Assembly (NCBI RefSeq): GCF_003334315.1
Contig: NZ_QOWR01000055.1
Origin: Escherichia coli
Lineage (GTDB): Bacteria; Pseudomonadota; Gammaproteobacteria; Enterobacterales; Enterobacteriaceae
DNA: 30,752 nucleotides
Direction: 5' to 3' (one strand)
The notes below the pieces were generated by a model. It saw only the letters and a program-made list of their open reading frames with translations, did no database searches and was not told the DNA's origin. Positions 9,307-9,389 of this stretch are shown piece by piece; within the stretch, counting starts at the first letter, position 1; each line of letters opens with the position of its first letter. The position numbers and the translations under genes were made by a program.

Positions 9307-9389
9307 AGCTACCTCATTCGTTAACGGAAACACTCAGAAAGTGTAGCAGAGGAACGCGGCGCGTTAACGCCGCGGGGATGAGCACAGGT

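Follow-up and report, generated by a model that had tools for sequence, protein, structure and literature searches.

Internal partial terminators associated with promoters are known from gene clusters, for instance the rplL-rpoB attenuator and the terminator T1 of the rpsU-dnaG-rpoD cluster. Another known class of intercistronic hairpins, the REP/BIME elements, stabilise the upstream mRNA against 3' exonucleases, as in the case of the malE-malF REP. On the promoter side, the consensus of the sigma-S extended -10 element is KCTAYRCTTAA, and a promoter of the extended -10 type can do without a -35 element. The short spacer between yqaE and kbp (ygaU) of Escherichia coli bears likeness to each of these systems and to canonical intrinsic terminators. 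We consider it likely that an inverted repeat in this spacer codes for a stem-loop that forms the 3' end of the yqaE mRNA, and termination there is probably partial. This would be an ordinary transcript end, already known in the sense that the 3' end is present in a published Term-seq table, and it is somewhat non-canonical in E. coli since the hairpin abuts the promoter of the next gene.

The window, that is the whole stretch of DNA analysed (30,752 nucleotides), comes from a K-12-like E. coli and is identical to MG1655 over positions 9250-9600; adding 2,787,480 to a window position gives the MG1655 coordinate (NC_000913.3). According to the open reading frame list and the RefSeq annotation, yqaE encodes a Pmp3-family membrane protein of 52 amino acids on the minus strand (9390-9548, stop codon at 9390-9392), and the downstream gene kbp lies on the same strand (8857-9306, ATG at 9306-9304). 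The two coding sequences are separated by 83 nt (9389-9307). In a comparative set of 80 kbp loci from species-representative genomes, yqaE was found directly upstream of kbp in Escherichia, Salmonella and Citrobacter only (14 loci). In Superficieibacter (two loci) yqaE is located about 1.4 kb upstream of kbp, and in the remaining genera of the set it is absent within 1.5 kb of kbp. In a literature search, no paper was found in which "yqaE-ygaU" or "yqaE-kbp" serves as an operon name.

The sequence at 9355-9375 is cgcggcgcgttaacgccgcgg. The original prediction described it as a GC-rich palindrome centred on GTTAAC, about 15 nt after the yqaE stop and about 50 bp upstream of the ygaU start, which could be either the terminator hairpin of yqaE or an operator or leader structure of ygaU. 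Its description of the site was accurate: the perfect 10-bp palindrome GCGTTAACGC is present at 9361-9370, the repeat starts 15 nt past the yqaE stop on the minus strand and it ends 48 nt before the kbp ATG. Its interpretation was partly supported, the terminator reading gaining support from the data presented below and the operator or leader reading none.

Folding of the minus-strand RNA, one of the checks proposed at the outset, gave a hairpin at 9355-9374 with an 8-bp stem (9374-9367 paired with 9362-9355; seven G-C pairs and one G·U pair) and the loop UAAC (9366-9363). The 34-nt fold has a free energy of -15.3 kcal/mol (z = -3.8), none of 200 shuffled sequences was as stable, and the hairpin makes up 84% of the ensemble. 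The stable register pairs CGCGGCG (9355-9361) with CGCCGCG (9368-9374). Its centre is one base off the centre of GTTAAC and it excludes the pairing of the palindrome, the two registers being mutually exclusive. The perfect palindrome is a by-product of the loop sequence and the closing pairs. Perfect 10-bp palindromes number 19 in the window, where about 30 would be expected, so that GCGTTAACGC alone is not beyond chance. More generally, what the eye takes for a "perfect palindrome" can arise accidentally from the loop of a terminator.

No other perfect stem of 7 bp or more made up of G and C alone, with a loop of 3-8 nt, is present in the 30.7-kb window. Dinucleotide shuffles of the window yielded a mean of 0.43 comparable stems and at least one of them in 32% of the shuffles, and some 40 positions on each strand of the window itself give 34-nt folds of equal stability. 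In addition, the 101-nt intergenic region as a whole is not unusually stable on either strand (z = -0.9 and -1.6). Composition and sequence statistics alone are only suggestive as evidence for a feature, and the case for a real one relies on where the hairpin lies, on the comparison with other genomes and on the RNA 3' end mapped next to it. The frequency of such stems in shuffled windows, the number of equally stable places and the loss of the hairpin in one Escherichia lineage are what a chance G/C-rich inverted repeat without function has in its favour. That the hairpin coincides exactly with a published RNA 3' end, and that one is present at the same position in three genera, with a compensatory change, reduces the probability of that explanation to a negligible level. 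A scan of 8800-9800 against Rfam 15 (E up to 10) found no relevant family, its hits being two chance-level snoRNA matches outside the hairpin (E = 1.8 and 8.1), and a known cis-regulatory RNA family was rejected on account of the missing Rfam match.

A published yqaE 3' end of the class "primary" was reported by Term-seq at MG1655 2796831 on the minus strand, with the flanking sequence ...CCCCGCGGCGTTAACGCGCCGCGTTCC|TCTGCTACAC (Adams et al. 2021, eLife, PMC7815308, supplementary file 1). This class is given to the strongest 3' peak in the 50 bp that follow an open reading frame, and two of the three entries for this end in the three-condition table hold 27,762 and 69,321 reads (PMC7815308). 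The coordinate converts to window 9351, 4 nt past the stem, within the tail UUCCUCUG (9347-9354, minus strand) that follows it. Term-seq had been among the checks proposed at the outset. RNA-seq of Salmonella Typhimurium 14028 defined yqaE as a transcription unit with its own start and stop (Wang et al.), which supports the terminator reading. The supplements of TERMITe contain no entry for the yqaE 3' end.

When compared with canonical intrinsic terminators (PMC7815308), the element shares a G/C-rich stem of 8 bp with a 4-nt loop just past the stop codon on the sense strand. It likewise resembles them in the stability of this stem-loop (-15.3 kcal/mol, z = -3.8) and in the position of the RNA 3' end, which lies in the tail downstream of the stop codon. 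The difference resides in the tail. A U-rich tract was defined as at least 5 U in the 8 nt immediately 3' of the stem, and UUCCUCUG has 4 of 8, of which only two adjoin the stem. A consensus promoter and terminator scan did not call the hairpin as a terminator because of this tail, and it called no sigma-70 promoter either. The poor U tract suggests that termination is probably partial and of low efficiency.

These same features could be explained if the hairpin were a 3'-end protector. Polymerase would run on and stop by the action of Rho or at the kbp terminator, or an endonuclease would cut the transcript, and 3'-to-5' exonucleases would then trim the RNA back to UUCC at the foot of the stem. 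A U-poor tail with a 3' end merely 4 nt from the stem is what exonuclease trimming would leave, and the 3' end of kbp (window 8760) is built alike, with UACC after a GC stem and no U tract. Moreover, many 3' ends were found to arise by processing, most non-canonical ones were ascribed to it and Rho-terminated ends were reported to be trimmed (Adams et al. 2021, PMC7815308); Term-seq data give termination and processing the same signature. Against this model, no Rho-termination region is listed in 2,796,200-2,797,099 in the bicyclomycin data, in which Rho sites are under-called according to the authors (PMC7815308, supplementary file 2), and the canonical U tract of the Citrobacter freundii-group orthologues described below argues for an origin as an intrinsic terminator. 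Trimming as the main source of the end is held to be unlikely, although the like form of the kbp 3' end gives it some weight. Termination and exonuclease protection are not mutually exclusive at this hairpin. We infer that the yqaE 3' end arises by termination at the hairpin and that this termination is probably incomplete, the element being leaky or acting in part as an exonuclease block.

The resemblance to REP/BIME elements, which also form G/C-rich intercistronic stem-loops defining a stable 3' end without a U tract, does not extend to their repetition. Of 5426 complete E. coli genomes, 5397 have the 30-mer at 9348-9377 in identical form, and a REP/BIME element was rejected since each of these carriers has it at a single place; the 351-nt region around it likewise has a median of one place per genome. 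The yqaE hairpin is thus outside any repeated family. A 60-mer around the hairpin was exact in just 1935 of 5402 E. coli genomes, and in nine sampled E. coli variants all the differences fell outside the hairpin. Two common polymorphisms of E. coli lie between the yqaE stop and the hairpin, namely T-to-C at 9378 and C-to-T at 9382 (minus strand).

Beyond E. coli, a strong hairpin was observed 3' of the yqaE stop in 13 of the 14 yqaE-kbp loci. In Salmonella and Citrobacter it is conserved in structure and variable in sequence, starting 12-14 nt after the stop in the Citrobacter freundii group and about 12 nt after it in Salmonella, and representative orthologous hairpins folded alone gave -12.5 and -17.7 kcal/mol. 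The right arm GCGCCGC is common to the hairpins of E. coli, Salmonella and the C. freundii group. In C. amalonaticus, an unrelated 11-bp hairpin occupies the same place. A MAFFT alignment of the whole intergenic regions put the Escherichia hairpin out of register with those of Salmonella and Citrobacter, and for this reason a hairpin alignment was made by hand. It contains 93.8% paired cells against 19-73% in slid registers, a count that leans towards this structure because the register was itself set from it. In this alignment, pair 2-19 is G-C in seven sequences, A-U in five and unpaired in none. Wherever a change on one side keeps the pair, it is C-to-U and produces U·G on the strand that is sense for yqaE (six cells in three columns, at least four independent events); on the other strand such changes would have been A·C mismatches. 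From the Escherichia variants alone the strand is ambiguous, one locus (L002) favouring the sense strand and another (L004) the antisense strand, and the wider set favours sense.

The tail also differs among the genera. In the Citrobacter freundii group the tails are of the UUUUCUUU type; three species have 6 U among the 8 nt and the remaining four have 4-5, and the element of this group can be written ACGGCGC-loop-GCGCCGU-UUUCUUU, a fully canonical intrinsic terminator. The Salmonella tails are U-poor. The canonical U tract found in the C. freundii group points to an intrinsic terminator as the origin of the element.

The locus without a strong hairpin (L004) belongs to Escherichia sp. MOD1-EC7003 (1425-1458). 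Three transitions in its left arm create two A·C mismatches and one U·G pair on the sense strand, where the hairpin is destroyed (-3.5 kcal/mol); the changes in this locus include G9370A and G9371A, in window numbering. An antisense RNA would keep the hairpin through G·U pairs. The loss of the sense hairpin indicates that it is dispensable in that Escherichia lineage, which provides a ready-made natural test case for hairpin function.

The hairpin alignment bears in addition on the idea that GCGTTAACGC is a DNA operator, bound by a dimeric regulator at the kbp promoter and overlapping its -35 region. The site has a perfect 10-bp dyad symmetry, spans about -35 to -22 with respect to the predicted kbp start and is invariant within E. 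coli, all of which would suit an operator. Such palindromes are not enriched in the window, however, and GTTAAC corresponds to the hairpin loop, whose four positions vary freely outside Escherichia. The loop columns read TAAC, ATAA, GTAA, ATTT, TCTG, TTCG, ATCT, AATC and TTTG, so that unrelated tetranucleotides stand in Salmonella and Citrobacter at this place, and the stem is kept and covaries. Since the loop varies in this manner around a preserved stem, GTTAAC is, as judged from the aligned sequences, an Escherichia-specific loop sequence and no conserved site. The conservation of the palindrome, which was proposed as a check, consequently holds for the hairpin stem in Salmonella and Citrobacter, and GTTAAC is confined to Escherichia. 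The geometry is not fixed either, the distance from the hairpin to the -10 element being 24-25 nt in the C. freundii group and about 26 nt in Salmonella against 8-9 nt in E. coli, and the kbp promoters of genera without yqaE are devoid of the site altogether. An operator at this position is accordingly considered most improbable.

A putative promoter of kbp itself was recognised in an invariant block, TCTGCTACACTT (9339-9350, minus strand), of the sigma-S extended -10 type. It contains TG at -15/-14, C at -13 and the hexamer TACACT (9345-9340), a pattern that we take to be that of sigma-S. The block begins 6 nt and its -10 hexamer 9 nt downstream of the stem. It shows no variation in any of the 15 yqaE-kbp intergenic regions compared from Escherichia, Salmonella and Citrobacter, and the end of the hexamer is 32-35 nt from the kbp ATG in these 15 sequences. 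Among the 80 Enterobacterales loci, CTAYRCT was found within 90 nt upstream of kbp in 52, against a background of 1.3%, and these include loci without yqaE. The block has the TGn, the C at -13 and the TAYRCT-like hexamer of sigma-S extended -10 promoters, at a fixed distance to the gene, and its TG-C-TACACT-TT thus matches them in each element; it differs from them in that the yqaE hairpin occupies the place of the -35 element. Conservation of the -10 block upstream of kbp even in the absence of yqaE implies that a putative sigma-S-type promoter of kbp itself lies past the hairpin; transcription is predicted to start from it near 9333.

Published data on this gene give indirect support. In Salmonella 14028, RNA-seq mapped the start of ygaU to 22 nt before its ATG, and this start carries a sigma-38 -10 motif (Wang et al.). 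Reports describe ygaU/kbp as dependent on sigma-38 and as induced by osmotic stress, the latter in E. coli. The supplements of Cappable-seq, SMRT-Cappable-seq and a Reg-Seq preprint contain no match for the E. coli kbp start site. As a side observation, E. coli O157:H7 SS17 carries a G-to-A change at 9347 (position -14) that removes the TG of the extended -10 element.

With its -10 element downstream of the hairpin, the transcript that kbp makes from its own promoter should lack the hairpin, which would be within the kbp leader solely on read-through transcripts from the yqaE promoter. This bears on the suggestion that the hairpin acts as a regulatory leader in the kbp mRNA and influences how this message is translated or how stable it is. 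The hairpin does lie 48 nt upstream of the ATG on read-through transcripts, and in the minimum-energy fold the CCUC that follows the stem (9352-9349) pairs with the Shine-Dalgarno sequence GAGG (9315-9312). The conserved kbp -10 block downstream of the hairpin predicts a sigma-S transcript without it, and the mapped Salmonella start only 22 nt from the ATG speaks against such a role as well. Furthermore, the CCUC-GAGG pairing is missing from the centroid structure, the 101-nt region is unremarkable (z = -0.9) and there is no Rfam match. A leader function, as put forward in the original prediction, is for these reasons very unlikely. It can be noted separately that the CCUC-GAGG pairing could reduce kbp translation from read-through transcripts only.

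A further element lies on the other side of yqaE. A CpxR box, GTAAATGAGAGTAAA (9646-9660, minus strand), is located about 98 nt upstream of the yqaE ATG and is the only perfect GTAAA-N5-GTAAA in the 30.7-kb window; no comparable box was found between yqaE and kbp. A CpxR footprint was described at yqaEp (bioRxiv 10.1101/2025.05.13.653802), and the CpxR regulon lists both yqaE and ygaU. Upon treatment with a LolCDE inhibitor, yqaE was increased 8.2- and 17-fold and ygaU 4.1- and 8.0-fold, ygaU being induced about half as much as yqaE. Read-through from the yqaE promoter would explain how ygaU belongs to the Cpx regulon with the sole CpxR box upstream of yqaE, and it would likewise explain the halved induction. 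We therefore infer that Cpx control of kbp operates via read-through from the yqaE promoter.

This arrangement recalls the partial terminators combined with internal promoters of gene clusters. As in those clusters, a hairpin between co-oriented genes would lower read-through and lead to unequal expression, and the downstream gene, here kbp, also has a promoter of its own. The yqaE-kbp junction differs in that the terminator and the next promoter are fused, the stem ending 6 nt before the extended -10 block, and in that one promoter falls in the Cpx and the other in the sigma-S stress regulon. Read-through at this junction is a prediction from the regulon data.

The following sequence of events would account for these observations. 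Once polymerase has passed the yqaE stop codon on the minus strand, the nascent RNA would fold into the 8-bp, nearly all-G/C hairpin and the yqaE transcripts would end at ...CGCCGCG-UUCC (window 9351). The terminated fraction would yield a stable monocistronic yqaE RNA with its 3' end protected by the hairpin, and the read-through fraction would carry Cpx-dependent transcription from the yqaE promoter into kbp, which would otherwise be driven by its own sigma-S promoter. The E. coli hairpin may be the remnant of an ancestral canonical intrinsic terminator that is still canonical in the C. freundii group. Escherichia would have lost about 16 nt of the spacer that separates the hairpin from the kbp promoter, and with them most of the U tract, so that UU would be left beside the stem. 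The shortened spacer would place the hairpin over the -35 and spacer region of the kbp extended -10 sigma-S promoter.

A bolder extension of this scheme is that the deletion of about 16 nt in Escherichia fused the yqaE terminator to the kbp sigma-S promoter into a composite that couples the two stress regulons, which we regard as improbable. If true, sigma-S initiation could be occluded or disturbed by Cpx-driven polymerases that pause or terminate at the hairpin, only some 18 nt ahead of the kbp start. The G/C dyad over the -35 region could also make the promoter supercoiling-sensitive, fitting the osmotic induction of kbp. Finally, CCUC could mask the kbp Shine-Dalgarno sequence on the read-through RNA, so that Cpx-derived kbp mRNA would be poorly translated and sigma-S-derived kbp mRNA would be spared.

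Returning to the likely reading as a partial terminator of yqaE, it matters little beyond annotation, where it establishes how the transcripts of a small stress locus are arranged. In this arrangement, yqaE would be a Cpx-driven unit that ends at the hairpin, and kbp would have its own sigma-S-type promoter and probably receive read-through in addition. A more general point is that a deletion that sets a terminator against the next promoter can cost the terminator its U tract.

The far end of kbp offers another arrangement of transcript ends. The genes kbp and glaR/csiR point towards each other and have overlapping transcripts (window 8737-8911). A kbp 3' end with a very high signal of 614,566 reads was mapped at MG1655 2796240 on the minus strand (Adams et al. 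2021, PMC7815308). It corresponds to window 8760, 97 nt past the kbp stop and antisense inside the glaR coding sequence, and it comes after the stem CUGGCGCG...CGCGCCAG, followed by UACC without a U tract. Conversely, the glaR terminator (8885-8905 and a T run, with the 3' end at window 8911) is located inside the kbp coding sequence, and the kbp and glaR RNAs would overlap by about 152 nt.
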